From positions 956-64,955 of the forward strand of contig JAAYPG010000016.1 of NCBI GenBank assembly GCA_012519905.1: DNA of 64,000 bases, given 5' to 3'. A program made the translations under genes and the position numbers. This stretch comes from Clostridiales bacterium. Its GTDB lineage: Bacteria > Bacillota > Clostridia > Lachnospirales > Lachnospiraceae. Shown in pieces: positions 3,166 to 31,833 of this stretch (its first letter is position 1; every line of letters starts with the position of its first letter). The notes under the pieces were generated by a model. That model searched no databases. It was given only the letters and a program-made list of their open reading frames with translations, and was not told where the DNA came from.

Positions 3166-3246
3166 TATATTATTATTGTTCTGCATAATTGATCAACTAA
3201 TTCTAAATCCATTTGCACTCAGCTATAATCTGATATAAAAGGTGAA

Positions 3247-4998: not shown

Positions 4999-5086
4999 AT
5001 TCTCTACCCCATTCTAGTTTGTTTTCTTCTACCTAAATTCAGTTTGGCACAATATTGAGGTTTTATACTTTTAATTATAATGTTTT

Positions 5087-5124
5087 TGGGGCTGTTCAAA
5101 ATATATCATTTTGAAACAGCCCCA
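5087..5124. terminator. stem-loop terminator downstream of laminaribiose phosphorylase
   Basis: TGGGGCTGTTCAAAA...TTTTGAAACAGCCCCA inverted repeat. Confidence 0.7.
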
Positions 5125-5157
5125 GATTAAGAGGTAAATGAGATTGATAATGTATGG

Positions 5158-7863
5158 CTATAATAGCTTAATTTCTATAGTATGACGATCATATGAATTA
5201 AGCTTACTAATCTTTGATTTTGATATTTGCTTCTTATTATTTATTGTTTCTCCGTTTAAGCATATATCAGATATTTTATAATTACCATATTGTTTTTTAT
5301 CTACATTATGATAGATGACTTTAAGCTTTTTATTGGCAAACACACAGGATACTGTGGCTTTACCTTCTTCATCAAATTGCTCAAGAAGAAGCTTTGGATC
5401 AAAGAACAGATTACCTGCGCTTCCTCTAACCCCATACATTTGAGTAAGGACAGTTAATAACAGCCAGCTAGCCGATCCGGTTAGGTAATGATACATACCT
5501 TCGCCCTTCTCATTAATGTATTCGGTAATACCCGGATAGACCTTACTCTTTTCAAAATTGCTAAGATGACGATATATACTATCTATAGCCTTAAAGCCTT
5601 CTCTTACAAATCCTCTCTTGTAGAGAGCGTAAGCATACATTACCGTCATGTGAGAAAATACAGCTCCGTTTTCCTTGTGTCCATAGGCAAAGCCAAACAT
5701 TCTCCCCAGGTCTGTCTTCAGCTCATGAAAATTAGTGTTTAGACGATATCCACCAATTTCCTCAGAGTATAAATATTTATCTGCCGCTTCTATAATCTTC
5801 TCCGTCTGCTCCTTAGTTGCTATGCCCGACATAATAGTAAATACTTGGCTGGTTAACATCATCCGCACCCCTAAGGATGTCTCTTGCTCTACTTGCCTTC
5901 CATTGTTATCATAATAGCCATTAAACCACGCATATCCCCCTCTTGTTGTAATCCATTCGCTCTCTCTGATATGCTTCTTGATCCATTCGCTTTTACCAAT
6001 GAGATTATCGTATAATTCATAACAATCCACTTCAATCTTTTTACCACTTATATGGTCCTTACAAAGATTGCAGAATTCATATAGGGTCTCTCTTTTTTCA
6101 TTTATATTATCATAATATTTAGGCCTGAGATTAAGAAGCACCCTAATCTCCTTGGCAATATACAGCTTGCTAATGCCAGTCTCATTTACCAGTCTTTTAA
6201 TCAAGCCAGCTATTTCCTCTAGGTTACTAGCATATGCAGCAGTAAAGGCTACACTCTCTCCTCTTTCAGCTGCCATATCCAGGGCATCATTCCAGTCTGC
6301 CCCTCGCAATCTAATATGATTATGCTCACCAACATCATAAAAGGATGTTAAATTCTGTACTAGAATATGCTCTAATATACTACCCTTATATACATTGCCT
6401 TCCTGGGTCATGAGTAGGTTTCCATCTTCCCTAGTCCACTTGGGATTCATCTCTTCTCCCCGATTAATTTGGCCATCTCTAAAATATTCCTTATCCTCAA
6501 GAAGCAGCTCCATATCCCCTGTTTGTTCTATATATAGACAAGTGGTAATAAAAGGCCAAACTCCATGATCCATCCATACCCGTGTTATATTGTTCCTATC
6601 AGCAATAAACTCACCGGGTTCACTTCCTATTATTGTTGCATTGGTTCCATCCATACGAATACCAGCAAAGTTGTTTAAGAGCATTTCTCTTACACCAGTA
6701 GGATTCATTACAAGTAAGGCCAAGCAGTCCTGCCACAAGTCCCTCCATCCTCGCCCACCCTTGCCATAATCATGATGGGGTAGAAAGGAACAGCCATATA
6801 TTCTTCTTAACATGGGCTGAAATGTAACCCAATACAACCATTGATCAAACTCATTGCTAGCTGTTTCAAATCTTATATTTATCTTATCCTTCCAATAAGC
6901 TTTTGTTATCTCTAAGGCCTTGATGAAGCCTTCTCTATATAAATATTTCTGTGCAGTATATATTAATTGGGATGCGTCCTTGCCATATCCTAGGACCAGA
7001 TAAAAAGCTTTCTCCTCACCCGGCTCCAGGCAAACTTCCCCAAAGCGTATTCCCCCTAAAGCCTCATAGCCACTGGTTTCATAGCCGCTAGGAAGAGGCT
7101 CTACCTTATCTGTCATAACAGCCTCAGGATTCTCTAATGACCCACCATTTCCTATATACTCTCCTAGGGTAGGATAGAATCCTACTATATTATTCCCATC
7201 CTCTGATTGACCAAAGAAACCATAGATTACATCATTAACCTTATGGCCTCTTTCATCAAAGCTAAGTGTAGGGTTTACAATTACACCAAACTCCATAGTG
7301 CTTATTCTATGTAATAGGGATGTAACATGTCTATGATCTCTTATATTATCTGCTGATCTTCCATAGATAGGCACTGCTGCAGTAGATGAAAATGTAATCC
7401 TTTCTGAACCCTGATTAGATATTATAAGTTGGGTTAATTCTACAGTATCACCATTACTGGGTACAAAGGAAGTTATTGTAGATTTAATACTTAACTTACT
7501 ATTGGATCTTGTAACTCTATGCCACATAATACCAGCTTCAAGCATGGTTTCTTCTTTATCATCATCGAATATAAGCATCTGCTGCCTGGCTGATACTCCT
7601 GTGGCTGACCATGGCTGCTGCCCCTTAATCTTGACCCAAAAATTTCTTGTACACTTTGTGCTATGTAGATTCTCACTACTTACAGGCTCTAACCAAAAAT
7701 GGTGCTGACCCATCTTTGAGTCACCCCCAAGATTGGGAGTAACACAGCTCATAACACCATTTTCATTAGCAAGAGGAAAGTATAGATAATTAGTAGTCTC
7801 AGGGTCTTTTAATTGAAATGTACCGTTTCTATCAATATACTTATACTGTTTCATTTCACTCAA
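5158..7863 (-). CDS. GH94 glycoside phosphorylase, laminaribiose-phosphorylase-like
   Basis: SFLPHHDYGKGGRGWRDLWQD, GADWNDALD, GHKENGAVFSHM, YLTGSASW; colinear with Paenibacillus laminaribiose phosphorylase as recalled; 901 aa. Confidence 0.85.
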   Translation of the reverse strand: MSEMKQYKYIDRNGTFQLKDPETTNYLYFPLANENGVMSCVTPNLGGDSKMGQHHFWLEPVSSENLHSTKCTRNFWVKIKGQQPWSATGVSARQQMLIFDDDKEETMLEAGIMWHRVTRSNSKLSIKSTITSFVPSNGDTVELTQLIISNQGSERITFSSTAAVPIYGRSADNIRDHRHVTSLLHRISTMEFGVIVNPTLSFDERGHKVNDVIYGFFGQSEDGNNIVGFYPTLGEYIGNGGSLENPEAVMTDKVEPLPSGYETSGYEALGGIRFGEVCLEPGEEKAFYLVLGYGKDASQLIYTAQKYLYREGFIKALEITKAYWKDKINIRFETASNEFDQWLYWVTFQPMLRRIYGCSFLPHHDYGKGGRGWRDLWQDCLALLVMNPTGVREMLLNNFAGIRMDGTNATIIGSEPGEFIADRNNITRVWMDHGVWPFITTCLYIEQTGDMELLLEDKEYFRDGQINRGEEMNPKWTREDGNLLMTQEGNVYKGSILEHILVQNLTSFYDVGEHNHIRLRGADWNDALDMAAERGESVAFTAAYASNLEEIAGLIKRLVNETGISKLYIAKEIRVLLNLRPKYYDNINEKRETLYEFCNLCKDHISGKKIEVDCYELYDNLIGKSEWIKKHIRESEWITTRGGYAWFNGYYDNNGRQVEQETSLGVRMMLTSQVFTIMSGIATKEQTEKIIEAADKYLYSEEIGGYRLNTNFHELKTDLGRMFGFAYGHKENGAVFSHMTVMYAYALYKRGFVREGFKAIDSIYRHLSNFEKSKVYPGITEYINEKGEGMYHYLTGSASWLLLTVLTQMYGVRGSAGNLFFDPKLLLEQFDEEGKATVSCVFANKKLKVIYHNVDKKQYGNYKISDICLNGETINNKKQISKSKISKLNSYDRHTIEIKLL

Positions 7864-7921
7864 ATCCTCTACCTTCTATTGGATACATTGCATGGCCATC
7901 CGGCTATATCTATTAATAAGC

Positions 7922-8788
7922 TTACTGAATATCATACTGCGTCACACGAATCCAATCATACTCTGCAGTAAGGGGAACCGTCCCATCATAGGCCTTTAGC
8001 CAGCTATCAACCCCTATTCCAGGCCATACATTCATCATAACCTTGCTTGGTGTTGAAGGAATATTATCTGTAGCAGTGTAAATAGCTTCTCCATCCACAT
8101 ACCAGGTGATTGAATCTGGTAGCCATTCAAAGGCATATGTGTGGAAGTCATCAGCTGCATCAAAGCCCAAATCATGCATATATTCATGGTTACCAATTCC
8201 ATTAGTAAAATAATTCAGTTGCATCTTACTGGTATCCTTACCTAAGAACTCAATATCAATCTCATCCCAAGGATTATTGTCACTGGGACCGGTATATGTA
8301 AAGAAGGAAGATACAACACCATTATTTTTGATTGGTTTCATTCTTACTTCATATAAGCCATAGCTATAAAATTCTCTAGAACGATATTCACTACCTGACC
8401 ATTTTGGCTTGGCATTTTCACCATCACTATCAATGGTCAGTCTCATAATTCCATCTGAAAATGTAAGATTATCTTTCCTCCAGGTGCAATCAAACATATG
8501 CCCATTGCTCCAGCCATCTGCTATTTCAAACATAGCAGAATCATATTCGTCTAAGTTGGTCTCAAAGGCTAATCTAGCTTCATAGTCTTTCAAGACCTCT
8601 TCCTCTATCTTATTATCTGCTCCAGGTGTGACTTTTACATCATCCATGTCGATATCTTGAACATTATCCTTATTATCCATATCCTGATCTCCATTCTGCT
8701 TCTTATTATTTGATTGACCACAGCCAACAAGTATAATTGATGTAGCTATAACCATCCCTAATAGCTTCAGTACTTTCTTCATATTCAT
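7922..8788 (-). CDS. GH16 lichenase (endo-beta-1,3-1,4-glucanase), lipoprotein
   Basis: WDEIDIEFLGKD catalytic motif and GVVSSFFTYTGP of Bacillus/Clostridium lichenases; lipobox ILVGC. Confidence 0.9.
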   Translation of the reverse strand: MNMKKVLKLLGMVIATSIILVGCGQSNNKKQNGDQDMDNKDNVQDIDMDDVKVTPGADNKIEEEVLKDYEARLAFETNLDEYDSAMFEIADGWSNGHMFDCTWRKDNLTFSDGIMRLTIDSDGENAKPKWSGSEYRSREFYSYGLYEVRMKPIKNNGVVSSFFTYTGPSDNNPWDEIDIEFLGKDTSKMQLNYFTNGIGNHEYMHDLGFDAADDFHTYAFEWLPDSITWYVDGEAIYTATDNIPSTPSKVMMNVWPGIGVDSWLKAYDGTVPLTAEYDWIRVTQYDIQ

Positions 8789-8820
8789 TGTCTCTATAAA
8801 GTCCTCCTATTACATAAAAA

Positions 8821-8871
8821 TACCCCTATTCCTCTATAGTATAACCTTTAATACTATAGAGGAATAGGGTA
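8821..8871 (-). terminator. 19-bp stem-loop between SBP gene and GH16 gene
   Basis: CCCTATTCCTCTATAGTAT (8824-8842) / ATACTATAGAGGAATAGGG (8851-8869); T5 tract follows on the minus strand. Confidence 0.7.
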
Positions 8872-8900
8872 TAAAATTATGATAATCTTAGGTTAAATTA

Positions 8901-10175
8901 TTATTGTTGAATAGTGATGCCCTCTATAAATCCTTGATAATCTATTTCATCTGCCATCATCTCATTTAGAGTATTATAGTATTGAGCAGAAAGCTCTTCT
9001 GTCATTATTTGATCATAAGCTGGATATAGGGTCCTATTTTTATTGATTTCCCAGATGGAATAAAGTAAGGGGAATTTCTGGGCATCAATACTTTGGTCAC
9101 GATAAACCGGAATTCCTCCCCCGATATCATTTACTATAATATCTGACACCTCATGCATTATGTCTATGTACATATCAATATAATCAGCCTTCTTAGGGAT
9201 AACCCCTTCCTTACTTATAACAAAGGTATCTACTACCCCTCCTATTCCTTCAGTGCTATTACCATTTGGAAAAGGGATTACTTCTACATTATTAGATACC
9301 TTAGAGCCCTCACCCTCAATAAGAGTGGTCGCCCAGCTCCCATAATAGAGCATAGCCCCTTCTCCTTGTGTAAAGGAATAGGCTGCATTATAGGCATCTA
9401 CCTCTAAGTAATCTTCCTGCCAGGCACTTTTTACAACCAAATCATATAATTTATGGGTGGCCTGTATATACTGCGGTGATAAGAATAAGGCTTTTTTGTT
9501 ACTGGCTTGTATTATATTATTACCCGATCCCTCTCCTTGAACTAAACTCATATAGTATAGAGAAGATACCCAGCCTTCCTTAGCACTGGTTATCATAGGT
9601 GTTTTATTCTTTTTATGTAATATATCTATAGTTTCTAATAAATGATTATAGTTCTTTGGGTATTCTAGGTTGTTCTGTTCGAATATATCCCGGTTACAAA
9701 ATAAGGCCGCTGTCCAACCGTAAAGTGGTAGGGCATAAGTCTTATTATTAAAGGTAAAGGCATCTAGCCCCCCTTCAGTAATCTCAGCATTAATCTGCTT
9801 CTTCTCTAATTCATGACTTATATCATATACCATATCCGCATCTACTAATCTTTCCAACTTGCTAAACCCCCACCAGAAAAACATATCTGGCAGATTATTG
9901 GTCATTAAGGCATTATTAATAGCTGCTTGATACACTTCATTTTTATAAACAGTAATATCAAATACTATATTGGGATTATTCTCTTCGTATTTTTTTATAA
10001 CCTTTCTTAAGGTTTCCTCAGTATCGCCATGTATAGTCCATACTGTTATTACCTCATCAGCCTTTTTACTAGCAGGCTCGTCACCCCAGATAAAATCTGA
10101 ATAAATCTTAATTAGAAAGGCACACAAGATAAGAGCTAAGACAATTACCAATCTTGTAAGCTGTTTACTTTTCAT
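8901..10175 (-). CDS. extracellular sugar solute-binding protein (family 1), N-terminal TM anchor, no canonical lipobox
   Basis: ITVWT..., LPDMFF, YALPLY, FTQGEGAMLYYGSW SBP_bac_1 pattern. Confidence 0.8.
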   Translation of the reverse strand: MKSKQLTRLVIVLALILCAFLIKIYSDFIWGDEPASKKADEVITVWTIHGDTEETLRKVIKKYEENNPNIVFDITVYKNEVYQAAINNALMTNNLPDMFFWWGFSKLERLVDADMVYDISHELEKKQINAEITEGGLDAFTFNNKTYALPLYGWTAALFCNRDIFEQNNLEYPKNYNHLLETIDILHKKNKTPMITSAKEGWVSSLYYMSLVQGEGSGNNIIQASNKKALFLSPQYIQATHKLYDLVVKSAWQEDYLEVDAYNAAYSFTQGEGAMLYYGSWATTLIEGEGSKVSNNVEVIPFPNGNSTEGIGGVVDTFVISKEGVIPKKADYIDMYIDIMHEVSDIIVNDIGGGIPVYRDQSIDAQKFPLLYSIWEINKNRTLYPAYDQIMTEELSAQYYNTLNEMMADEIDYQGFIEGITIQQ

Positions 10176-10317
10176 GCTTTCTAACCACCTTTCAGATTTT
10201 CCTTATTATAGCTATTTTATTATATCACACTTCATAATTATCAAACAAGCATATCAATTTAATCTTCTTAGCCTAATAATCTCTTTAGCCAGGTCTATAG
10301 AACTTCTTTGTACATGA

Positions 10318-10358
10318 AAAACTTAGATGAACACTTATCTCGTATTCATCTAAGTTTT
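10318..10358. terminator. intergenic 14-bp stem-loop
   Basis: AAAACTTAGATGAA / TTCATCTAAGTTTT perfect inverted repeat after the SBP gene ending at 10432. Confidence 0.6.
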
Positions 10359-10431
10359 ATGTGGCCTCAAATACGTAGGGGCATATTTGAGCACCGCTTC
10401 TTCTTACTTTACTTGGCTTCTAATATATGGC

Positions 10432-11904
10432 TTACTTAAAAAATGTATCTAGGGCATCCTGTACCTGTTGTTTATAGGTTTCTTGGAACTGTGCAGGTGT
10501 AACTGTTCCGTCAATTAAGGAATTAAAATCATAGCCAAATCCTAGGTTGTTATACATGTCAAATACTTCTCTACTACCTACATATGACATTACCTCAAAG
10601 TTCTCATTCTGAAGAGTTTCCTCCTTACCGGTTACTAGATACCACCAGAATAAGGACTCTCTCTGATCTGGCTCAGGCTTTCCTTCACTATAATTCCACA
10701 TATCATAAAGTACATTAAAGACAAGCTCTGGATCCTCTACGCCAGCTGGTATCATATAGTATTCTCCAGCTGATATCTTACCACCGTTGGTATTCTGATC
10801 TCCTGATGGTCCTACAGGCCATTGAACAAATACTGTATCAAATTCTAGGGTAACCCCGTTAACTCCAGTATAATCATAGTCTGCATGTTCTGATGCAATC
10901 CAAGCAGCTCCAGGCCAGAAGCCTATATTACCTTCTCTGTACTGGAAGGTCATAGCCTCGAAAACAGCATCTGAAAATTCATAGGGGTAGCAGACATTAT
11001 AGGTGTTATACATATCAGACATCATCTGAAGTACCTCACCAGTAGCTGCACTGGATAATTGCTCAGTCTTAGTTGCAGCTACATTGGCTCCATTACTCAT
11101 TAGAAGTTGCTCAAAAGTATACTGGTGAAAACCACAATATCCATATTGATCAACGGTTCCATCACCATCTGTATCCTGTGTTAATTTCTGTGCATATTCA
11201 ATGAACTTATCCCAGGTCCACTCACCTCTCTTATAAAGTTCACGGGGATCCTCTAGGTTGTTGTCTTGTAGCATCTGTAGATTAAATGCCAATGGATAAG
11301 TTGCCTCTATATTACTGGATAATTCTACCTTCTTTAGTAGATGAGCCTTGCCGTCTCCTAAATCAAGGTATTGTGCAACCTTCTGATTTGTGAATATATC
11401 AGAATCCGCAGGTAGAACTGTCTTTAAATCTGTTGCAAGGCCATTTATTGCTGCAGGTATACCAAAATTTAATTCAACTAGATAGATGTCACAATCCGGA
11501 GACCCTGCCAGTATTGATGTATTAATTGATTCCTTTACTCCCTCAAGAGTGAGGTTCTGCCAATAAAACTCTACATTGTATCTTTCCTCGATTGCCTTAA
11601 CATTATCAAACTTCCAATGAGCAGACTCAAGGCCTGAATAGCTTGGGTCGTCTTCAACTGATGTATGTGAACTATCATAATATTGTGGCCACCAGGTTCC
11701 TATGGTTATAATTCTCTTTTCTCCACTAGGTTTAGAAGCTTCAACATCTTTTTTATCTTCTTCCTTATCATTAGTATCAACATCTGTTTTATTAGTAACA
11801 CCTGTCTCAGTCTCATCCTTGGAATCCGGCTTACTACATGCAGTTATTCCTAGGATAAGGGTGCACACAAGAGCAAGTGAAAGTATTTTTTTAAATAACT
11901 TCAT
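10432..11904 (-). CDS. carbohydrate ABC transporter solute-binding lipoprotein
   Basis: Lipobox ITAC, acidic linker, YNVEF, GSPDCDI, GEWTWDKFIEYAQKLTQD SBP family-1 motifs. Confidence 0.85.
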   Translation of the reverse strand: MKLFKKILSLALVCTLILGITACSKPDSKDETETGVTNKTDVDTNDKEEDKKDVEASKPSGEKRIITIGTWWPQYYDSSHTSVEDDPSYSGLESAHWKFDNVKAIEERYNVEFYWQNLTLEGVKESINTSILAGSPDCDIYLVELNFGIPAAINGLATDLKTVLPADSDIFTNQKVAQYLDLGDGKAHLLKKVELSSNIEATYPLAFNLQMLQDNNLEDPRELYKRGEWTWDKFIEYAQKLTQDTDGDGTVDQYGYCGFHQYTFEQLLMSNGANVAATKTEQLSSAATGEVLQMMSDMYNTYNVCYPYEFSDAVFEAMTFQYREGNIGFWPGAAWIASEHADYDYTGVNGVTLEFDTVFVQWPVGPSGDQNTNGGKISAGEYYMIPAGVEDPELVFNVLYDMWNYSEGKPEPDQRESLFWWYLVTGKEETLQNENFEVMSYVGSREVFDMYNNLGFGYDFNSLIDGTVTPAQFQETYKQQVQDALDTFFK

Positions 11905-11967
11905 TCCTTTAACCTCCTTATTATTTGGCTCTTTTAGAATAATATATTTGGACTGGCTGTAAACCTT

Positions 11968-13920: not shown

Positions 13921-13982
13921 TTTTTACTCCTCCTTTTTTATAAAATACGTATTGAGTATTTCTTTGGGTGGAAGCATTTTTT

Positions 13983-14981: not shown

Positions 14982-14996
14982 AAGGCCACTCCCTTC

Positions 14997-18544: not shown

Positions 18545-18590
18545 TTTCTCCCCCGTTCTACTTATAAATCTTAATACTAATAAGCCTGGA

Positions 18591-20715: not shown

Positions 20716-20723
20716 ATTTCCCC

Positions 20724-22579: not shown

Positions 22580-25500
22580 TACCAATCCTCCTCTTAACGG
22601 AGGATTTCTCCTCCTCATTTAATTCTAAATTTAAACTACCTATAACAGAGGATTTATTCTCACCCTCTTTGTCTATATCCAGCTCATCCATCTTATAGGC
22701 TATCTCAGCATTGATATATATTACCTTCTCCATAAGTTCTTCCCTTGGAGTAGCTGTATCTGTATCAGTTGTTACTGTATAGAAGGCATTGTTAACATTA
22801 CGCCATGAATAATAACCTCCAGGAACCTGGGGTATTCCCCTGGTCTGATTAAACTGAGCCATAAGGGCCTTATAATCATCAACAGGCCATGACAAATTCT
22901 CCAGAGCCTCCAGATTAGCTGTTGCCACCCTTGCACTGGATCCCATTAGGCTTTCCATCTCTCTTCCGAACATTGTCTGTGTAGCTGCAGAGGTCCACCA
23001 CTTTAAAAACTCCCAGCTTTCCTCTGGATATTCGGTATCAGCCATAATAAGGTCAGCAAGACCTATGCTTCCTGTGGTATGGTTGATGCTTCCATCCTCC
23101 TCTAATATTCCAGGAACCACAGTGAAATCCCAGAGGCCTTTTATATCAGGAGCTGAGACCTGAAGGTTGTTATAGAATTGATAATCTGCAATTATTATTG
23201 GACACTCTCCAGTCCTAAAACGCTCCTCTACACTGGTTTCCTTATCCAGCTTATAGTCAGTATAAAACTCACAATATTCTTTAAATACATTGATTGAGAT
23301 TTCAGAATCAAGGGCTGAAGCGCTACCATCGGCATTATAATAGGAGCCACCCATTTGATATAACATCATAGCAAAGACCTGTTCGCCAGGAAGCATACCA
23401 AATTCCATCTGGTTCTTTGACAGCACTGTCATAGCCACCTTGACCTCATCCCATGTCCTTGGTAACTGTAGCCCAATCTCAGCTAATATATCCATCCTGT
23501 AGAACATCATAAGAAAGGACTGGGTATCAGGCAGAGCATATACTGCATCCTTATATGTAAAAGGTACCATTGCACTTTCTGAGAACCTGGCAGCCACCTC
23601 TGGATAATCCTCAAATTCAGTTAAATCCAGAACGGCGTTACGTATACCATAATTCACAGGAGTGTCATTGGCTGAACTAATCATACCAGCGGCCACTTGA
23701 CCAGTAGCCACTTGAGTTGGCCCAACCTGGATGGCCACGTCAGGCCCTTCGCCGGCTAGCGTCGCCTTCAGCAGTGTGCCCATATCAACCAGCTGTACAT
23801 TGACATTTATATCTGTCTCATTAGTAAAGGTATCATCTATTAAGGATTTGATAACATTAGCCTGATCTCTTCCTGTTCCTATCCAAAGGGTTAGGGTAAC
23901 ATTTTCAGAATCCACATCAGCAACATTACCAATCATGTTATAGTCAATTATAAAGGAGTAAAAAAGTCGTTTTATTTCATAGACTAGCTTAGACCAAAAT
24001 GATGTGTTCTCGTATTCCACTTCTACATCAGGGGAATATATATTTATTCTATCAAGGGCTAAGGGCTGCTGAATAACCTGGGTAATCCAATTACCACAAG
24101 CTCTTACATTTACCTTATAGGAGCTTATTACCTTAATAAAATCCTCCTGGTCCTTAATGAGCTGTGTCAACTGGTCCCTCATGGTTCTAAGAACCGTCTC
24201 CTTATCTGAGTTGCTTCCTGCAACCTCTCTAAGCCTTAAAATAACGCCCTCAATCTGGTCTCTAACATCAATAAGCTCTGCCTCAAGACCCGGTAGGGTT
24301 GCTTCTATCTGGTAATCCCTATAGATATCTGGGGCTACTCCTGTAATTCGGATGACTTTACGGTATATAGAGTTGAGCTTTTTAACTGCATCCTCTACCT
24401 CACTTACGATATCTGAGAATTCACCCAGTACAACCTCCATTCGGATAGTATGATTACCTTTTTCTAGATAAAAATAATAGGGCCTTTCTTCATCATCAGA
24501 TAGGACTATATTCCTCCAACGGGAATTATACTTAAATTGATAGTCCGACATTTCCTCAAAGGGTACTTCCCCATCTATAGTTATTTTTCTTGATACATTT
24601 ATTCCACGAAGGTAGCTTTGCTTAGCATGTAAGGATATATTGTAATATCCTGTTTCAGCCACATCAAAAGACCATTCTATCCACTGCCCAGAATCCCTCC
24701 AGGAATTATCTCCAATGGTATTGTTAAGAAGTGTTTTAGAGCTTGAGGGATATATAGCTGGTGAGGATTGATCCTGCTTAGGATATAGCATTTGAGAAGA
24801 TGTCATCGAGGCATTCTCGGCTTCAATCCTTATATATTGCCCCCTGCTTTCCTCTGCTCCTGCCTGATTCCAGCTATTAATTGTAGAATCATAATCCATA
24901 ATTTTTTCGACATTCTTCAGGCTTATCTCGTGAATAAGCATCGGCTCTCTTAAGGAAAGCATGGATATAGTGTGATTGCCCTTGGTTAGGTATATTGCCA
25001 AGGGACTTGTGATATATCCGTTATTATCATAGCAATATGAGGATATCCACTGTGGTGCCTCTACACTGCGGGGCTTTATGTCATTGCCCTGATTGTCCTT
25101 CTCCCAATTTCTCATGGTAACTCCATGATTATCAATAAAAGTATCCTGTATCTCAGTCTTCCATATTCTATAGAATTCAATTAAAGCCATCTCATTATAG
25201 GGAAGCTTGCCATCTACAAAAAAGCTTCTTTGAATATCTGAACTTCTTCCCTCCACAGGGAAATACAATAATGAAAGATAGTAAAAGCCACTCTCTTCTA
25301 CCTGAATTTCATATTCTATTAAGGAATTGTCCGCAGTTAATACACTGTCTCCTGCCATCCCGTCATAATCCTTATATAGCTCTGGTTCAACCTCCAGCCC
25401 GTCCTCTTCATATCTCACAAAATCCGTTGCAGCTATAACTATTTCCGTCTCGGGATAGGTTTCATCATAGGCTGCTATGTATTCCTTATAATTAGGAATT

Positions 25501-25661
25501 GTGCTATCTATGGAATAGGTATTAACAATATTCTTAAACTCCTCCTGTTTTATGTCAGTTGAAGCCCAAGCATGAGTTACAGATGCTTGTAACATAATAC
25601 CCATTATTGAAGCAGTCAGAAGCACTGCCACTATTCTTTTGAAATATTGCTTTTTTAGCAC
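22569..25661 (-). CDS. large (~1030 aa) extracellular solute-binding protein with N-terminal beta-sandwich (CBM-like) and coiled-coil regions
   Basis: C-terminal SBP family-1 domain (TLTLWIGTGRDQANVI..GPDVAI); N-terminal IEAE/WIEWSFDV..GYYNI CBM-like strands; probable GTG start at 25661 (ORF track 25703). Confidence 0.75.
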   Translation of the reverse strand: MLKKQYFKRIVAVLLTASIMGIMLQASVTHAWASTDIKQEEFKNIVNTYSIDSTIPNYKEYIAAYDETYPETEIVIAATDFVRYEEDGLEVEPELYKDYDGMAGDSVLTADNSLIEYEIQVEESGFYYLSLLYFPVEGRSSDIQRSFFVDGKLPYNEMALIEFYRIWKTEIQDTFIDNHGVTMRNWEKDNQGNDIKPRSVEAPQWISSYCYDNNGYITSPLAIYLTKGNHTISMLSLREPMLIHEISLKNVEKIMDYDSTINSWNQAGAEESRGQYIRIEAENASMTSSQMLYPKQDQSSPAIYPSSSKTLLNNTIGDNSWRDSGQWIEWSFDVAETGYYNISLHAKQSYLRGINVSRKITIDGEVPFEEMSDYQFKYNSRWRNIVLSDDEERPYYFYLEKGNHTIRMEVVLGEFSDIVSEVEDAVKKLNSIYRKVIRITGVAPDIYRDYQIEATLPGLEAELIDVRDQIEGVILRLREVAGSNSDKETVLRTMRDQLTQLIKDQEDFIKVISSYKVNVRACGNWITQVIQQPLALDRINIYSPDVEVEYENTSFWSKLVYEIKRLFYSFIIDYNMIGNVADVDSENVTLTLWIGTGRDQANVIKSLIDDTFTNETDINVNVQLVDMGTLLKATLAGEGPDVAIQVGPTQVATGQVAAGMISSANDTPVNYGIRNAVLDLTEFEDYPEVAARFSESAMVPFTYKDAVYALPDTQSFLMMFYRMDILAEIGLQLPRTWDEVKVAMTVLSKNQMEFGMLPGEQVFAMMLYQMGGSYYNADGSASALDSEISINVFKEYCEFYTDYKLDKETSVEERFRTGECPIIIADYQFYNNLQVSAPDIKGLWDFTVVPGILEEDGSINHTTGSIGLADLIMADTEYPEESWEFLKWWTSAATQTMFGREMESLMGSSARVATANLEALENLSWPVDDYKALMAQFNQTRGIPQVPGGYYSWRNVNNAFYTVTTDTDTATPREELMEKVIYINAEIAYKMDELDIDKEGENKSSVIGSLNLELNEEEKSSVKRRIGNGN

Positions 25662-25742
25662 ACTTATACCCCTTTCAAGCTTTGGTCCTATTTTTCCAGA
25701 CATCTCCTTATGATTAATTATAGAATAAATAGTCTTATCTAA

Positions 25743-25762
25743 TAACTATGTAAAATTACGAT
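25743..25762 (-). promoter_or_regulatory. candidate activator box, 20 nt upstream of a TATAAT -10 (25717-25722)
   Basis: TAACTATGTAAAATTACGAT (plus strand); 17/20 identical to 31905-31924 with identical spacing to a -10-like hexamer. Confidence 0.6.
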
Positions 25763-25787
25763 ATAGGAGGACAAAATTCTGAAAAAA

Positions 25788-25980
25788 GAGGCTGTCGCAG
25801 AAATGTAAGAGGGAGTGTATATATTCCATCACACACTGATTAGTAGTACAGTTTACTATGATTTGTAAATCTTAATCGGACTAAAGTCCGCTTTCGATAA
25901 TACAAATCATAGTAAACCGTTCTCCTAAATGTGCATGATTGGAACATATACGCTCCCTTAATTACTTCTGCGACAGCCTC
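25788..25980. mobile_element. 193-bp MITE/REP-like element with nested inverted repeats
   Basis: 15-bp perfect terminal IR GAGGCTGTCGCAGAA extending to ~40 bp imperfect; inner 17-bp IR GTTTACTATGATTTGTA; core hairpin CGGACTAAAGTCCG; no ORF, no obvious target-site duplication. Confidence 0.55.
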
Positions 25981-26008
25981 ATGTTCTAATTACTATATTT
26001 AATTTGCT

Positions 26009-27748
26009 TTAATTACAAGCTACCTTTAATATTATTCTGGTGTAGCTATTTGCTTCTGATTGAATTTCCATAATTTCATTCATATCTTTTGTCTCATATA
26101 AAAGCGCTAGGCGATTTAAGACAGACTTCAAACCAAACCCTGACTTTACATCTAACTGCTCACCACTCATAATCCTATCTATGGTCACTGGGCTCATACC
26201 AACCCCGTCATCCTCAACGATTATCTCTGCATAATCTTCTCTCCTTCTTACTATAATAGATATATTTACAGGCTGTCCAATAGTCTTTATCCCGTATTTT
26301 ATACTGTTCTCCACCAGTGTCTGAATAGTCATCTTTGGTATCTGTAAGGATAGTAAGCTCTCATCGATATCCTTATTAAGAATTAGTATATTGGGATTTC
26401 TAATCAAGGCTATTTTTATATAATCCTGAACAATGCCCAATTCTCCTTCTAGAGATATAATGTCATTACCATGATTCAAACAAGCACGATAATAGCTAGC
26501 CAGGGTAGTTATCAACTGCTTTGCTGATTCCTTCTCCTCAACACTAACTAAGATGCTGGCTGCATTAAGAGTATTGTATAGAAAATGTGGCTTTATCTGA
26601 TGGTTAATAACTGATAGCTCCAATTGTCTTTGTAGTTTTTCTCTATTCTCCACATCCTCCATCAGGCCCCTAATCTGAGACATCATTTCATTTAGAGCAT
26701 TTGAAATATCATCTGCTTCTGAATAATACTTTTCATTGGGAAAGCTTATATTCAGATTCCCCTCGTTAGTAATCTCCTTAGCTCTTTCAGCTATTATTTC
26801 AAGAGGGACGATAACACGTTTCTTAAGAACCACAGATGCTATTATTGTGAAACCAATAATGACTATAAGCATAAACACTATGGCAAATTCCACATTATTA
26901 CCATGGATAGATTGCTTGGATGAAATCATGATAATTCCATCTATACTAGATAGGATATTGGCACTGTATCTATCAGGCATTTCTCCCAAGTTGTCTTCAT
27001 ATGCCTTAAGCATTTGCAAATCCTTACCAAGGGACGCGCTAGAGATATTACCTGGGAAGGTAATAACTTTATCAGATGCACTCTTGATAAGTATCTCATT
27101 CTCCTTATCTAAATACTTCATGATTTCCCCTTGAAGCTGATTAATATCCATAAATACAACAAGATAACCTAAGTGCTCCATCATATCCTTAGACCTTATA
27201 TTACTTACAAGATAGATTATATTCCTATCTACCTCTACATTATCTGTACCTATCTCCCAGTAAAAATCTCCCCTTAGACTATGATTTTCATCTATGGACA
27301 AATTATCGATGGTTTTCTTTTGATCAAAATTATATACTGGATATTTAAACTCAGATACTATAGAATCCTCGCATATAATATGTACAGAGGATATGAGATC
27401 CTGCTGGGCCATCCTTCTCATAATAAGGCTACCAAGAAGGTTATTCCTTATGTCATGGTTTCTTGTAAAGATATCATGCAGTTCATCATCAACTACAAGC
27501 TCATCTGCAAATATCTTTATATCATCCAATTTGGAATTAATTATATAAGTCACAATACCTAATGATTTATCATTATTTATTGCTTGTCGATGGGTCAATT
27601 CCTTACTGGTAATCCCAATAAAGATAACAATACCAAGAACCATAGAAATAATCATAACTCGGATATAGCTACCAAGTAATACATTGGTAATGGTGGCATT
27701 ATAATATGTTTTATCTGGTTTTCTGCTCCATATACTCATAATTTTCAC
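26009..27748 (-). CDS. sensor histidine kinase (YesM/LytS-type) with HAMP domain
   Basis: Two TM segments, QIKPHFLYNTLN, QTLVENSIKYG, EDDGVGM, GFGLKSV. Confidence 0.9.
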   Translation of the reverse strand: MKIMSIWSRKPDKTYYNATITNVLLGSYIRVMIISMVLGIVIFIGITSKELTHRQAINNDKSLGIVTYIINSKLDDIKIFADELVVDDELHDIFTRNHDIRNNLLGSLIMRRMAQQDLISSVHIICEDSIVSEFKYPVYNFDQKKTIDNLSIDENHSLRGDFYWEIGTDNVEVDRNIIYLVSNIRSKDMMEHLGYLVVFMDINQLQGEIMKYLDKENEILIKSASDKVITFPGNISSASLGKDLQMLKAYEDNLGEMPDRYSANILSSIDGIIMISSKQSIHGNNVEFAIVFMLIVIIGFTIIASVVLKKRVIVPLEIIAERAKEITNEGNLNISFPNEKYYSEADDISNALNEMMSQIRGLMEDVENREKLQRQLELSVINHQIKPHFLYNTLNAASILVSVEEKESAKQLITTLASYYRACLNHGNDIISLEGELGIVQDYIKIALIRNPNILILNKDIDESLLSLQIPKMTIQTLVENSIKYGIKTIGQPVNISIIVRRREDYAEIIVEDDGVGMSPVTIDRIMSGEQLDVKSGFGLKSVLNRLALLYETKDMNEIMEIQSEANSYTRIILKVACN

Positions 27749-28781
27749 ACTCAGCTTTTTTATATTCTTGCGGTGTCATATCACAGTATCTCTTAAATAA
27801 TTGCGTAAAATAAGTTGTGTCCACATATCCTAAGAGATTACTTACCTCATATATCCTCATATTCTTTTCCTTCAGTAGATACTTGGCCCGTTGCATCTTT
27901 AATTTAGTCACATAATTTAAGAAATTTTGTCCAGTCTCCTGCTTAAATAGACTACAAAAATAATTCTTGCTGATGCCTAAAACCTTACCTATTTCTGTGA
28001 GTGTAATTTTCTTATCAATATTATCTATCACATAATTGCAGGCCTGTCTTACTATATTATCCTTATATATCAAATAATACTTTTCTAGTATCTCAAAGAT
28101 TCTATTTATTTCCTGCTTAAAGTCAGCTATCAAATCTGCTTTACTAATAAATCGCTTGTTTTTTATGTTTAAGTAGGTATCCAGCTTCTCAAGCTTGTTT
28201 AAGCTTTTATATTTCTTATTAACATTGTTTACAATGGTCTCTAGAATATAAATGAAACGAAAGCAGGTTCCTTTAATATCGCTATCACCGTATTCCATCT
28301 CCTCATCTATAATTCTTTCCATAAGCTCAAAGACAAGAGGGTCAGTAAGAAGTACAGCATCTATCAATTTGTTGTCTAGCTCACTGTTAAATTCTCTCTC
28401 CATAGTAAAGGCTAGATTTTTCTTTATATCTACTAAGGTTTCACATATCTGACTTTCTATGATAGGCTTTAATATATAACCTGCTACTCCATATTTTATA
28501 GCGGCTTTGGCATATTCAAACTCTGCATATGCAGTCAAAATAACTACAACAGTCTTGCTCTTTCTTTCATTAATTCTCTTTATGTACTCAATACCATCCA
28601 TGATTGGCATTTCAATATCTGTAATAACCAGATCGATTTTATGATTATCCAGCTGCTCTAAAGCTTCTACCCCGTTTTGTGCCTCGCATACAAGTTTAAA
28701 TCCATATTCTTCCCAAGGTATTAGTTTCTTTAGCCCAACTCTAACTATTGGTTCATCATCAACAATCTGAACATTAATCAT
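27711..28781 (-). CDS. response regulator with AraC-type HTH (YesN-like)
   Basis: IVDDE, TDIEMP receiver domain; YFCSLFKQETG..YFTQLFKRYCDMTPQEYKK AraC domain. Confidence 0.9.
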   Translation of the reverse strand: MINVQIVDDEPIVRVGLKKLIPWEEYGFKLVCEAQNGVEALEQLDNHKIDLVITDIEMPIMDGIEYIKRINERKSKTVVVILTAYAEFEYAKAAIKYGVAGYILKPIIESQICETLVDIKKNLAFTMEREFNSELDNKLIDAVLLTDPLVFELMERIIDEEMEYGDSDIKGTCFRFIYILETIVNNVNKKYKSLNKLEKLDTYLNIKNKRFISKADLIADFKQEINRIFEILEKYYLIYKDNIVRQACNYVIDNIDKKITLTEIGKVLGISKNYFCSLFKQETGQNFLNYVTKLKMQRAKYLLKEKNMRIYEVSNLLGYVDTTYFTQLFKRYCDMTPQEYKKAECENYEYMEQKTR

Positions 28782-28863
28782 TCATCATACCTCCCCCATA
28801 TAATATCTGCTTGCAACAAAACCTCAGCTATTAATAGACTATATAATTTTAACAAAAAATACA

Positions 28864-28900
28864 AGCCATAGATAAAACTTTTTGTGTATTATCTATGGCT
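28864..28900. terminator. terminator after cellodextrin phosphorylase
   Basis: AGCCATAGATAA / TTATCTATGGCT 12-bp inverted repeat. Confidence 0.7.
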
Positions 28901-28908
28901 AAATATCA

Positions 28909-31833
28909 TTAATTAAACCTTATATGTACTTGATGGTTAGTTCCATCATTTACGAGTTTGATTCTATTCTCATCTATAATTTCATTATCAAGGGATATAG
29001 TATAATTAAAATCCTTTAGCCTATAAAATCCTTTAGGTTTTTGAATCATAATCCTATAATGACTATCTAGGTAACGTAAGGTATAGCTCATATCTTCCTC
29101 TTCATGGGATAATAATGGATTAATAATCAAGCTATCACCCTGATACTCTATACCCAGCATCTCAAAGATAGTAAGAGAAAGCCATGTAGATGTTCCACTT
29201 AAGGTAGGTCCAATATGCTCCCCTGTGAAGCTATTGATATACTGAGTACACCATCTAGGATTTCCACAAAGCTCATAGGGATTATCAAATGTATTATAGG
29301 GTAGTGCCCTATCAACCATCCAGTATGCTAAATCTCTAAGCCTTATTGCCAACTCCTGATTATGCACCTCTTTAGCTGCTTTTATCATTGCTGCTGTTGC
29401 CATCATGGAGGCATGCTTAAAGATAGCTCCATTTTCCCTATCTCCTGGAAAATACTCTCCTGTAGCAGTCGTCTTGGATACTCTTGATAGATCCGTAGGA
29501 CTCATTAGCATAAATCCAAAGGGCTTCTTCAGATGTTTTTCAACTTGATTAAGCATTATCTCTATCTGCTGCTCAGTAGCCTCTCCTGATAATATGGACC
29601 AGCTGAAGGAGTTTAGGAAATAGGTTCCATCTATATTAGCGTCACTGGAAAATCCATCATTTTTAGCACCAAGATAGGTTATATCTTCACCAAAACGGTT
29701 AAACAAGACACGGGCAAAAAAATCTTCTTTCCAGCAATTCTTCTGTAGAGACTGACTTAAGCTATCTATACTTTGCTCAAGCTCCTTCTGGTATTCAAAA
29801 TCCTTAAGGAGCTTAGCCATCTCTTTCAAATACTCCATGGCCAGCCTTAAGAGGAATCCATTCATAACACTTTCTGAATAATAATCTATGGGGCCCTCAG
29901 AATTCTCCTTATCCTTACCAGATAAATATTTGGAATCTACCTTTAGACAATCATTCCAATCAGCAAAGTCTATAAGTGGCAGCCCATGCTTACCAATAGA
30001 TTTCTTACTTGAATAATGAATAATAGCCTTTAGGGTATTATATACACTTCTCTTTTTTTTATCAGTTTCAGGGATTTCATGTGATTTCTTCAAAAAGTCG
30101 GTATCCTGGGAGAACTGGATATATCTATAAATTGCTTGGATTAGCCATAGGCCATCATCAGACCATTTACCTGGCTCCTTTCCCTTCCAAAAGAAATTAT
30201 GGTAGCAATAACCTGCTTCAAAAACCTTCTCAGTCCATTGCATTAGTAATTCCTTTACAAATTCCTCTTTACCCATAGACATAAAATAATACATTGAAGC
30301 ATAGATATCTTGAATTTCTCGAAAGCCAATCTCTCTATATCCCTTCTGTGTTAGGTCAAAGGACCTTGAAACGAAGGTTTGATATAAAACCTGGAAGGGT
30401 AGGTTATTGTTAATGTACTTGTTGTATTTTACATTCTGTGAATCTATGGACAGGTATGATTTATATTGTGAATACCAATCCATATGCTCTTCAAAGCATT
30501 TATCTAACATATCCTTATGACTAAATTTATTATGTAATTCCTCTAGCTGGGCAAATATAATATCATCAGCTACATCATCACCCAATAAGGATATTAGACC
30601 TGCATATTGATCAGCTATGACTTCCTCTTGGGGATCCAAGGTAAAATCCTTGCCCAGCGATATAAAGGCTGGCCCTTTTATACCCAGCTTATTAGATAGC
30701 TTCATTAGCCCTTGGGGATAATATAGATTACCATTTCCAATAAAATCAGCATAATTGGTTCCAATTTCCTCTGGGAATAATTTATCGCCTTTTTTATAGA
30801 ACATGCCCGACATAAATCTAAGGTCCTTTTGGCAGGTATTTGGATAGTAATGTGGTAGGTAGGCTAGAAAATCGCCATTCTTACTCTGAACCATACCAGA
30901 CTCCATTATAATTGTAGAATATACCACATCCTCCATGAAGGCTCCTGGAACTGGAGAGCCCATCATACCCGTCATTACAATCCTCAAATCCCTCTTCCTA
31001 TTACCTATATTATTTATAAAAATACGTTGAACCTCTGTAGCAATGGGTAAGCCCTTGTACTGTGGAAGGAGGAATATTCTCCTTTTGACCTCTAAGCCAC
31101 ATTCAGTTATATATTCAATCTCTGTGTAATTGTTAGAATGCCTACATACAGCAGATTTAATATTACTATCAGTAACATTAGCTGAATAGAAGATTTGCTT
31201 CCCCTTTTCAAGAATATAAAACTGCCTATTAGCAGGAAATCCATTTTCTTCTGGCAGCATATCCCATCTGGTCGCCAATACCTGGGTAGCAGCGTGAGAC
31301 CTAAAGCTACCTCCTCCCAGCCTGTCAACTACAGATTTGGGAGTTGTCTGCAAAGGATAAGGAAAATCCATACGGTTGCCCAATAGCATATTTGTAGAAA
31401 AATGCGGACTTGGAGAGGGCTTTTTCAGATCAATGATATGATCTCCATTGGCATCCAAATAACCTACCCAATGAGTATAATCTGAAAGACGCTCTATAAT
31501 ATGGACTTGAATATCCTTATCTATTAGCCTATTTTCAAGGCTTCCATTACTATATACATAATGATTAACCTGATTTCCTTCCCAATCAATTTGTAAGAAG
31601 TGAGATTCCTCTTTTGATAGACCTCTTAAATACTCTCCTACTATTACACTCTTATAGAGCTCCTTAAAGGCTGGTATCTGATATATAAAATCCCCAATTA
31701 CTATCAAGTGCTTTAAGCTGATATCATTAAATTGGTAGTCATAATATCTGTTATCATCTAATAGTTCCCCAAAATATTTATGGGCTAACACCTTTGAATC
31801 ACCCAGTATATCTCTTGCATTTAGCCTATGCAT
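28909..31833 (-). CDS. GH94 cellodextrin phosphorylase (C. thermocellum CDP type)
   Basis: LQTTPKSVVDR.G.GSFRSHAATQVLATR, EENGFPANRQFY, QKGYREIGFREIQD, ADWNDCL motifs match C. thermocellum CDP as recalled; 974 aa with N-terminal extension. Confidence 0.85.
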   Translation of the reverse strand: MHRLNARDILGDSKVLAHKYFGELLDDNRYYDYQFNDISLKHLIVIGDFIYQIPAFKELYKSVIVGEYLRGLSKEESHFLQIDWEGNQVNHYVYSNGSLENRLIDKDIQVHIIERLSDYTHWVGYLDANGDHIIDLKKPSPSPHFSTNMLLGNRMDFPYPLQTTPKSVVDRLGGGSFRSHAATQVLATRWDMLPEENGFPANRQFYILEKGKQIFYSANVTDSNIKSAVCRHSNNYTEIEYITECGLEVKRRIFLLPQYKGLPIATEVQRIFINNIGNRKRDLRIVMTGMMGSPVPGAFMEDVVYSTIIMESGMVQSKNGDFLAYLPHYYPNTCQKDLRFMSGMFYKKGDKLFPEEIGTNYADFIGNGNLYYPQGLMKLSNKLGIKGPAFISLGKDFTLDPQEEVIADQYAGLISLLGDDVADDIIFAQLEELHNKFSHKDMLDKCFEEHMDWYSQYKSYLSIDSQNVKYNKYINNNLPFQVLYQTFVSRSFDLTQKGYREIGFREIQDIYASMYYFMSMGKEEFVKELLMQWTEKVFEAGYCYHNFFWKGKEPGKWSDDGLWLIQAIYRYIQFSQDTDFLKKSHEIPETDKKKRSVYNTLKAIIHYSSKKSIGKHGLPLIDFADWNDCLKVDSKYLSGKDKENSEGPIDYYSESVMNGFLLRLAMEYLKEMAKLLKDFEYQKELEQSIDSLSQSLQKNCWKEDFFARVLFNRFGEDITYLGAKNDGFSSDANIDGTYFLNSFSWSILSGEATEQQIEIMLNQVEKHLKKPFGFMLMSPTDLSRVSKTTATGEYFPGDRENGAIFKHASMMATAAMIKAAKEVHNQELAIRLRDLAYWMVDRALPYNTFDNPYELCGNPRWCTQYINSFTGEHIGPTLSGTSTWLSLTIFEMLGIEYQGDSLIINPLLSHEEEDMSYTLRYLDSHYRIMIQKPKGFYRLKDFNYTISLDNEIIDENRIKLVNDGTNHQVHIRFN

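Follow-up and report, generated by a model that had tools for sequence, protein, structure and literature searches.

Mixed-linkage (1,3;1,4)-β-glucan is a major cereal fibre, and to our knowledge Blautia producta is the only Gram-positive anaerobe whose use of it is understood in detail. How could such a bacterium dismantle this polymer with a lichenase and two phosphorylases when no β-glucosidase is encoded beside them? This question is raised by a block of 16 genes at positions 5158–31833 of a 64-kb stretch of a Clostridiales contig (JAAYPG010000016.1, assembly GCA_012519905.1), to which we refer as the window; all 16 genes, and all locus features discussed below, lie on the minus strand. 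A first-pass annotation of this sequence had proposed that lichenase products are imported, trimmed by a cellodextrin phosphorylase (CDP), and finally split by a laminaribiose phosphorylase (LBP). Our analysis lends in silico support to this lichenase–CDP–LBP route by way of locus conservation, a contrast between the partners of LBP in different loci, a common operator-like motif, active-site residues, and published work on GH94 enzymes including the CDP of Clostridium thermocellum (CtCDP). None of our observations conflicts with the route. We put the probability at about 0.65 that the locus is a Gram-positive polysaccharide utilization locus (PUL) for mixed-linkage β-glucan that operates by a two-phosphorylase route under a three-component sensor.

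The host is an uncultured Herbinix/Mobilitalea-like member of the Lachnospiraceae of biogas, compost, and manure. Among species representatives, the nearest relatives of its LBP belong to an uncultured Herbinix (83% identity), a Mobilitalea metagenome-assembled genome (77%), and Herbinix hemicellulosilytica (70%). Genes identical to those of the locus occur on contigs from biogas fermenters, and the DNA is also found in sludge, manure, and compost metagenomes.

Results and Discussion

Protein domains were assigned with Pfam, and open reading frames (ORFs) of at least 100 residues were scanned in the locus and over most of the remainder of the 64 kb. This survey recovered the genes that the first-pass annotation had listed, namely a lipoprotein GH16 lichenase, a CDP, an LBP, a kinase with its regulator, and ABC transport genes. 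The earlier statement that the locus contains no β-glucosidase also holds, as no GH1 or GH3 domain was detected in the scanned ORFs. Neither the locus nor the scanned window ORFs contain a cellobiose phosphorylase, and the locus contains no β-1,3-oligoglucan phosphorylase. A CDP without a cellobiose phosphorylase, together with an LBP without a β-1,3-oligoglucan phosphorylase, fits substrates whose last disaccharide is laminaribiose. With a regulator, a polysaccharide-degrading enzyme, and a transporter encoded side by side, the block corresponds to the definition of a Gram-positive PUL quoted in PMC10318527. NCBIfam gave no useful names for ten of the locus proteins.

The 288-residue GH16 protein (7922–8788) finds its best solved relatives among 1,3-1,4-β-glucanases, with 293 bits to 3I4I, 246–293 bits to wild-type and circularly permuted 1,3-1,4-β-glucanase entries, and 228 bits to 3D6E. 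By comparison, β-1,3-glucanases score at most 52 bits. The catalytic motif reads DEIDIEFLG from residue 175, with the EIDIE core at 176, and residues 20–23 form an LVGC lipobox. By homology this protein is therefore classified as a Bacillus-type 1,3-1,4-β-glucanase lipoprotein without an attached carbohydrate-binding module (CBM).

The 901-residue GH94 protein (5158–7863, with ATG at 7854 as the likelier start) matches the Paenibacillus laminaribiose phosphorylase (PsLBP, 6GGY) with 1080 bits. The catalytic WND motif, the RD motif (D375 in PsLBP), and a conserved phosphate-binding histidine are features of LBP (PMC6771811), and the corresponding motifs of the window protein are ADWND (D526), GGRGWRD (R374–D375), and ENGAVFSH (H738). 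Because the two sequences differ by indels of only 1–2 residues across 872 residues, the β-hairpin "gate" and the "upper strand" (465–480), which restrict the PsLBP active site to a disaccharide, are presumably present as well. No signal peptide was found, as expected for a cytoplasmic enzyme, and the comparison identifies the protein as an LBP-type GH94.

The second GH94 protein (28909–31833, 974 residues), also predicted to be cytoplasmic with no signal peptide, aligns with CtCDP over its full length (988 bits; residues 16–973 to residues 17–983 of 8H6H; also 5NZ7). This alignment includes the extra N-terminal domain of CtCDP-type enzymes and identifies the protein as a cellodextrin-phosphorylase-type GH94. 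The CtCDP residues at the phosphate site and in subsites −1, +1, and +2 are Trp622, Asp624 (catalytic), Cys625, Arg496, Gln874, Tyr804, Glu810, Phe815, Asp297, and Tyr300 (PMC5667895), and all of them are identical in the window protein (including W626, D628, and C629). Hence, Asp297 and Tyr300 of the +2 subsite and the platform residue Trp622 are kept. Likewise conserved is His817 of CtCDP, an assignment based on homology with other members of GH94. CtCDP binds laminaribiose in its acceptor subsites +1/+2, as observed by saturation transfer difference NMR (PMC9293210); the statement in the first-pass annotation that CDP accepts laminaribiose as a substrate for the reverse reaction could not be confirmed.

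Two features of this enzyme raise the possibility of a shifted specificity. Canonical CDPs of 989–990 residues have a catalytic loop following DWNDCLK that exceeds the loop of the window protein (window 29830–29960, residues ~625–668) by about 13 residues, and Glu328 of the CtCDP +3 subsite is replaced by Thr333. The short loop is common to the clade of 974–981-residue CDPs from loci of this type; for CtCDP, the loop is reported to be 12 residues longer than that of cellobiose phosphorylase. GH16 genes share the locus with five of the six CDP homologues whose contigs we examined, with LBP present as well in at least four cases; the exception is an orphan with 56% identity. Together, these observations would suit a clade of dedicated 3-O-β-cello-oligosyl-glucose phosphorylases, that is, a new EC activity within a pathway that otherwise proceeds as proposed. 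We regard such an activity as rather unlikely. All contact residues of subsites −1, +1, and +2 are unchanged from CtCDP, and both Glu328 and the long loop are features of CtCDP rather than proven requirements for activity. Furthermore, the loop is disordered in CtCDP, and more distant LBP-linked CDPs (from loci L095 and L051, see below) keep a long or intermediate loop.

From these assignments and the gene context, we infer the substrate, the order of reactions, the role of each binding protein, and activation by the regulator as follows. A lipoprotein with three CBM65 domains would hold the polymer at the cell surface, where the lipoprotein lichenase would cut it to oligosaccharides ending in 3-linked glucose, mainly G4G3G and G4G4G3G. 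ABC systems encoded by a ten-gene cassette would import these products. In the cytoplasm, CDP would remove β-1,4-linked glucose from the nonreducing end as glucose 1-phosphate (Glc-1-P) until laminaribiose remains, and LBP would split laminaribiose to Glc-1-P and glucose. A 424-residue binding protein, the kinase, and the AraC-type regulator would sense the ligand and activate three promoters with a common operator. By stoichiometry, G4G3G would yield two Glc-1-P and one glucose, which saves one more ATP per oligosaccharide than the B. producta route. A biosynthetic role, with the phosphorylases running in reverse, was rejected on account of the extracellular endo-glucanase and the importers in the locus.

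To place this gene set in context, we sampled 80 LBP-centered loci with one genome per species (L-numbers denote these and further loci examined). In 45 of the 80, LBP stands beside a gene of ~1059 residues for a GH161 β-1,3-glucan phosphorylase, identified by 810 bits to 9QQK and by Pfam analysis of cluster representatives. This majority context corresponds to the tandem proposed earlier for β-1,3-glucans (PMC6484121). Genes for LacI, GH30, laminarinase-type GH16, and GH17-like proteins are also common. A minority of the loci pair LBP with CDP instead. A lichenase-type GH16, 54–74% identical to that of the window, is present in these CDP loci and in others with the same type of regulator, and within the 80 loci such a GH16 was seen only in these two groups. 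Among the loci examined, the search for co-occurrence of the three families that the first-pass annotation had suggested shows lichenase-type GH16, CDP, and LBP recurring together in several lineages.

The arrangement of these genes varies. The canonical order CDP–response regulator–histidine kinase–binding protein–permease–permease–binding protein–GH16–LBP occurs in L088 and L093. The latter is a metagenome contig with 99.9% identity to the cultured strain H. hemicellulosilytica T3/55, and it shares its chromosomal neighborhood with the window (genes for a helix-turn-helix protein, SbcD, SbcC, a metallo-β-lactamase, and a HAD hydrolase). In the Cellulosilyticum-like loci L035 and L094, a gene for a methyl-accepting chemotaxis protein is followed by CDP, LBP, response regulator, histidine kinase, binding protein, two permeases, and a second binding protein, with GH16 next in L035. 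Mobilitalea (L007) has the order CDP–response regulator–histidine kinase–binding protein–GH16–LBP followed by the cassette, and in two Clostridia (L051 and L095) the genes for CDP, GH16, and LBP are arranged differently again. In L031, L035, L094, and L095, CDP has LBP as its direct neighbor. Hence, the locus type is kept across Lachnospiraceae and Clostridium lineages with proteins that are 50–87% identical and with differing gene order. Conservation across such rearrangements suggests selection on the combination of enzymes. Since the same enzyme set recurs in independent genomes together with a common cis-element (see below), the co-location is not due to chance.

The same comparison bears on whether CDP and LBP act in sequence at all. 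The locus could be a general β-glucan and cellodextrin locus, in which CDP serves cellodextrins from cellulose, an enzyme encoded elsewhere processes cellobiose, and LBP serves laminaribiose from β-1,3-glucan. CtCDP-type enzymes are classically cellodextrin enzymes, LBP usually occurs in β-1,3-glucan loci (the 45 of 80 mentioned above), a GH5 "cellulase" is added in L087 and L095, and a GH161-sized gene is present in L028, L040, and L095. However, among endo-enzymes the lichenase-type GH16 alone is conserved throughout this type of locus, rather than a cellulase or a laminarinase, and neither a cellobiose phosphorylase nor a β-glucosidase was found in the locus or in the scanned window ORFs. 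In addition, a single operator-like motif precedes both CDP and GH16–LBP, and the CBM65 family does not bind β-1,3-glucans (PMC3576085). We therefore consider independent functions of the two phosphorylases unlikely and favor the sequential route.

Several further observations concern the sampled loci themselves. A gene for a methyl-accepting chemotaxis protein lies immediately upstream of CDP in L035 (5682–7469), L051 (2843–4654), and L094 (8232–9980), which hints at chemotaxis toward the same oligosaccharides. The record of H. hemicellulosilytica T3/55 (L008, 6958–8389) is ~1.4 kb longer than L093 (20676–20692) between the sensor-like gene and GH16; the extra DNA holds an ORF of 315 residues on the opposite strand and is possibly a mobile element. 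Two apparent rearrangements were discarded. In L003 (GCA_900198705.1, FZPS01000072.1), a lichenase gene beside a phosphoglucomutase gene is a false context, because this record is a 6.4-Mb chain of short pieces joined by spacers of 100 N; one 3.3-kb piece of it is 99.85% identical to window 5515–8839. In L038, 15 kb seem to be deleted, but this record also contains a run of 100 N and the gap probably reflects the joining of scaffolds.

We then turn to the question as to how these genes may be controlled. The upstream regions of CDP, the cassette, and GH16–LBP contain ATCGTAATTTT-type sites that we describe as a putative operator. A loose regular expression for this motif was too permissive to be informative and was replaced by a weight matrix combined with a cross-genome test. 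The matrix covers 22 nucleotides and was built only from sites in six other genomes. Scanning both strands of the 64-kb window returned, as the top three hits, positions 25765 (27.5 bits), 31927 (24.3 bits), and 8886 (15.5 bits), each of which lies in an upstream region and on the coding strand; the best score among 30 shuffles was 18.9 bits. L093 had been kept out of the training set, and its three top-scoring hits fall at these same positions; in L094, also held out, the matrix scores the importer site highest. Across 70 control LBP loci (1.29 Mb), no site reached 19 bits. The exact pattern ATCRTAATWTT has no match in Mobilitalea L007, where the sites deviate by 1–2 bases and were recovered by eye and with the matrix.

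The three sites differ in detail. Upstream of CDP, the motif occurs twice (31906–31948) with starts 21 bp apart; this doubling is repeated in L088 and L007, and L093 also contains a counterpart of the motif. The site in front of the first cassette gene (25744–25765) matches sites that precede ordinary importers in L008, L035, L087, and L088 (training set) and in L093 and L094 (held out), and that precede the cassette in L007 and L038. The third site (8865–8886) has counterparts in L007, L035, L087, L088, and L093. It overlaps the 5′ arm of a hairpin with a 19-bp stem and a U-run (8824–8869), so that both elements together span 8824–8886. As read from the sequence, a −10-like hexamer follows 21 nucleotides past the operator-like site in all three promoters (TAACAT for CDP, TATAAT for the cassette, and TATACT for GH16–LBP). 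The hairpin would end the preceding unit, and TATACT inside it would start the GH16–LBP transcript. Scans with σ70 and terminator consensus models performed at chance level overall, and only the 8869–8824 hairpin stood out.

Stem-loops follow the genes for CDP, the kinase, the 490-residue binding protein, the 424-residue binding protein, and LBP, and they delimit five transcription units (CDP; regulator–kinase; cassette; 424-residue protein; GH16–LBP). The operator-like site is confined to the three "output" units, namely CDP, the cassette, and GH16–LBP. After CDP, a terminator-like stem-loop with a U-run (28860–28900) has a counterpart in L007, and another stem-loop (5085–5125) marks the end of the locus after LBP. 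Between the kinase gene and the cassette lies a near-perfect nested hairpin of ~195 nucleotides with a U-run (25790–25980; −111 kcal/mol, z −17.6), which is probably a terminator. It occurs once in the window and has no Rfam match at gathering thresholds, at which only two tRNAs were found. In metatranscriptome contigs, the word depth over its core reaches ~800, compared with 1–10 for the neighboring genes. Since many of these contigs run into unrelated flanks, the hairpin appears to be a member of a repeated and highly represented palindromic element.

The regulator–kinase unit encodes a response regulator with an AraC-type DNA-binding domain (27711–28781; Response_reg and HTH_18) and a membrane histidine kinase (26009–27748; His_kinase/HATPase_c). 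The 424-residue sugar-binding protein (8901–10175) has a membrane anchor in place of a lipobox, and its gene has its own promoter region without an operator-like site. This gene keeps its place beside GH16 in all versions of the locus while the importer changes. A membrane-anchored, separately expressed binding protein with a constant position fits a ligand sensor like CuaD of Ruminiclostridium cellulolyticum. By analogy, we propose that the 424-residue protein is the ligand sensor for the kinase in a three-component system. In the cua cluster of this organism (cuaDSR and cuaABC-cbpA; PMC6720390), a binding protein, a kinase, and a regulator jointly control an ABC importer and a GH94 phosphorylase for β-glucan oligosaccharides, as we propose for the window locus. 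In contrast, the cua cluster is dedicated to cellodextrins and cellobiose, with a single cellobiose phosphorylase and no extracellular enzyme (PMC6720390), and its gene order differs in that the sensor-like binding protein of the window is encoded separately, downstream of the importer.

The least ordinary part of the locus is the uptake apparatus. The first-pass annotation had listed one importer; ABC transport genes are indeed present, but they comprise two permease pairs and three genes for binding-protein-like proteins rather than a single system. It had omitted the 3×CBM65 lipoprotein, the NHL/TPR protein, the Yip1 protein, and an 877-residue DUF5696 protein. Ten genes form a cassette (25703 to 10432) that fills the slot of one binding protein and two permeases in the orthologous Herbinix locus. 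The first encodes a 1044-residue secreted binding-protein fusion (22569–25703), in which a family-1 sugar-binding domain is joined to an N-terminal region of ~600 residues with no relative in Pfam or the PDB. It is followed by the first permease pair (21632–22618 and 20724–21632), a secreted NHL-repeat/TPR protein (19216–20775, with a likely start codon near 20718), a Yip1-family membrane protein (18591–19226), the DUF5696 protein (15911–18544), and the second permease pair (14997–15911 and 13983–14981). The 3×CBM65 lipoprotein (11968–13920; LVGC lipobox), for which a sequence search of the PDB returned no match, and a 490-residue sugar-binding lipoprotein (10432–11904), followed by two stem-loops, complete the cassette. 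The CBM65 family binds barley β-glucan, lichenan, and konjac glucomannan, whereas laminarin and curdlan are not bound (PMC3576085). A cassette used for glucan as well as for glucomannan would be consistent with this range.

The same ten genes in the same order, with 38–83% identity per gene, occur in three other Lachnospiraceae (L090, L091 from Anaerotaenia torta, and L092; ~2500–18000 in each). A gene for GH26 with CBM35 lies directly upstream in all three, and GH130, GH5, or LacI genes lie downstream in two of the three. On account of these neighbors we classify them as mannan-type loci. Between versions of the cassette, the permeases are the most conserved proteins, and the CBM65 protein and the 490-residue binding protein are the least conserved.

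These mannan-type loci allow for a less coherent view of the window, in which the cassette is a mannan or glucomannan importer that was inserted by chance among unrelated neighbors, and the lichenase products enter the cell through a transporter encoded elsewhere. The association of the cassette with GH26–CBM35, GH130, and GH5 genes, the affinity of CBM65 for konjac glucomannan (PMC3576085), and a metatranscriptome depth over cassette genes that exceeds that over GH16, LBP, and CDP all speak for this view. Yet the cassette sits exactly in the binding protein–permease–permease slot of the orthologous Herbinix locus, and it is preceded by the operator-like site of the ordinary importers, which at 27.5 bits is the best in the window, whereas the matrix found no such site in the mannan-type cassettes (L090–L092). 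The scanned window ORFs contain neither GH26 nor GH130 domains. In Mobilitalea, where the cassette comes after LBP, it is again attached to this locus type and again carries the operator-like site. Finally, divergence between the versions of the cassette is greatest in the substrate-contacting parts, namely the CBM65 protein and the 490-residue binding protein. On balance, a chance assembly is very unlikely, and we retain the cassette as the probable importer of the proposed mixed-linkage glucan pathway.

Metatranscriptomes of compost, of sludge from bioreactors, and of a biogas fermenter contain contigs for all parts of the locus with at least 95% identity, in most cases at least 99%. These contigs show that the locus is transcribed in nature, as distinct from induced by a given substrate. 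The depth is highest over the genes for the 490-residue binding protein, the CBM65 protein, and the second permease. Single contigs from compost skip 54 and 59 bases at window positions 22617–22672 and 25849–25909 and carry a few letters that do not match; strain variation or effects of assembly at repeats are the probable causes.

The DUF5696 protein may represent a further glycosidase in the locus. Its predicted model is of moderate quality (pLDDT 72, pTM 0.74) and suggests a GH129/GH101-like fold of three domains with a central (β/α)8 barrel. With Foldseek, the top match to this model is 5OPQ (E 1e-24, TM 0.63 by target), followed by 5WZN and then by GH101, GH36, GH31, and GH97 structures. 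A profile search of PDB sequences gave only a marginal hit to 5WZN (E = 2.8), which is not significant. Sequence alignment shows that Asp492 is invariant, and that acidic residues near 735 and 773 are kept between subfamilies at 23% identity. The stop codon of the DUF5696 gene overlaps the start of the following permease gene. Because the N-in membrane anchor places the body of the protein outside the cell, a hydrolytic activity of DUF5696 would be irrelevant to the claim that the intracellular bonds are cleaved with phosphate. A distant core of DUF5696 and two permeases (23–25% identity) occurs beside GH161–LBP loci in Eubacterium species (L058, L066, L073, L085, and L086; first 5 kb). In these genomes, the DUF5696–permease genes lie directly upstream of genes for laminarinase-type GH16, LacI, GH161, and LBP, and the contigs or flanks stop in or just before DUF5696.

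These findings allow for the tentative proposal that the cassette is a modular surface machine of Gram-positive bacteria, which captures, processes, and imports β-linked plant glycans and is exchangeable between loci, with DUF5696 as a new GH family distantly related to GH129 and GH101. The cassette would have replaced an ordinary importer in the window, it would serve GH26/GH130 mannan loci elsewhere, and its DUF5696–permease core would act at GH161–LBP loci. We consider this joint proposal rather doubtful. A full-text literature search for DUF5696 found no paper.

Some considerations weigh against the proposed two-phosphorylase pathway as a whole. The support for it is computational throughout, and proteins of this locus type are known from sequence. 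Laminaribiose has been termed a non-natural ligand of CtCDP (PMC9293210), and we found no publication in which a CDP that has the N-terminal domain phosphorolyses G4G3G; such entries are marked "NA" in Table 3 of PMC10318527. β-Glucosidases may be encoded elsewhere in the genome. As for regulation, the motif was first spotted by eye in three intergenic regions of the window, before the cross-genome test, and the third hit (8886) scores below the best shuffle. Metatranscriptome depth taken per contig is a poor guide to co-expression. Elsewhere the cassette adjoins GH26 and GH130 mannan enzymes, so that its presumed ligand in the window follows only from context and from the operator-like site.

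A comparison with known systems helps to define what would be new in this pathway. Most similar is the locus of B. producta ATCC 27340 (PMC10318527), which also combines a cell-attached GH16, an ABC importer, an AraC-type regulator, and a cytoplasmic GH94. The first-pass annotation had correctly stated that this organism uses one GH94 together with GH3. The B. producta GH94 phosphorolyses G4G3G and G4G4G3G to disaccharides and Glc-1-P, with laminaribiose as the disaccharide obtained from G4G3G, but is inactive on laminaribiose, which is then hydrolyzed by GH3 (PMC10318527). This GH94 lacks the N-terminal CDP domain and is 23% identical to CtCDP (PMC10318527), whereas the window CDP has this domain. 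Laminaribiose and cellobiose are hydrolyzed in B. producta by two GH3 enzymes encoded elsewhere, whereas the window locus includes LBP and no GH3 was found. The GH16 of B. producta is multimodular with CBM4, whereas the window GH16 is a bare lipoprotein and the CBMs reside on a separate lipoprotein. The importers differ as well, with a ten-gene cassette in the window.

Tandems of GH161 and GH94 (LBP) for β-1,3-glucans (PMC6484121) resemble the window locus in that genes for an ABC importer and a GH16 accompany two phosphorylases for which consecutive action has been proposed. In contrast to the β-1,4-specific CDP and the lichenase of the window, these tandems contain a β-1,3-specific GH161, and their GH16, where one is present, is usually of the laminarinase type. 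The mixed-linkage PUL of Bacteroides ovatus (PMC11418011, PMC10318527) similarly employs a surface lipoprotein GH16 that produces G4G3G and G4G4G3G, surface glycan-binding proteins, and laminaribiose as the last substrate. However, this Gram-negative system is based on SusC/D and on periplasmic hydrolysis by GH3, with no phosphorylase.

The first-pass annotation had suggested that the two-phosphorylase design may be undescribed. As far as the route is concerned this suggestion stands, since our full-text literature searches found no description of a CDP–LBP route for mixed-linkage glucan. The pairing of the two genes, on the other hand, has probably been seen before. CDP/LBP pairs from metagenomic fosmids were characterized by MacDonald et al. 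in 2019 and have consecutive accessions (QCO92991/QCO92990 and QCO92946/QCO92945; table in PMC8950772), which suggests adjacent genes as in L031, L035, L094, and L095.

One neighboring gene deserves mention. A 296-residue protein with a weak tocopherol-cyclase-like domain (window 4108–4998) is encoded 3′ of LBP, past the stem-loop, in all contigs of the same species. It probably lies outside the locus; in Mobilitalea the cassette follows LBP instead.

Conclusions

In this locus, the pathway is less of a surprise than the cassette and DUF5696. The swap of an ordinary importer for the cassette under the same operator-like site provides a clean natural experiment, and it points to an uncharacterized uptake apparatus and to DUF5696 as a candidate new glycosidase family. 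H. hemicellulosilytica T3/55 is a cultured test organism with the canonical locus. If the proposed pathway is correct, CDP and LBP would offer a naturally occurring pair of enzymes with which to synthesize or degrade mixed-linkage oligosaccharides of defined structure, and the locus would serve as a marker in metagenomes. Cleavage of both the β-1,4 bonds and the final β-1,3 bond with phosphate would then be the most ATP-sparing design known for mixed-linkage glucan, and would partly account for the fitness of these Lachnospiraceae in digesters, compost, and guts, where energy is limiting.

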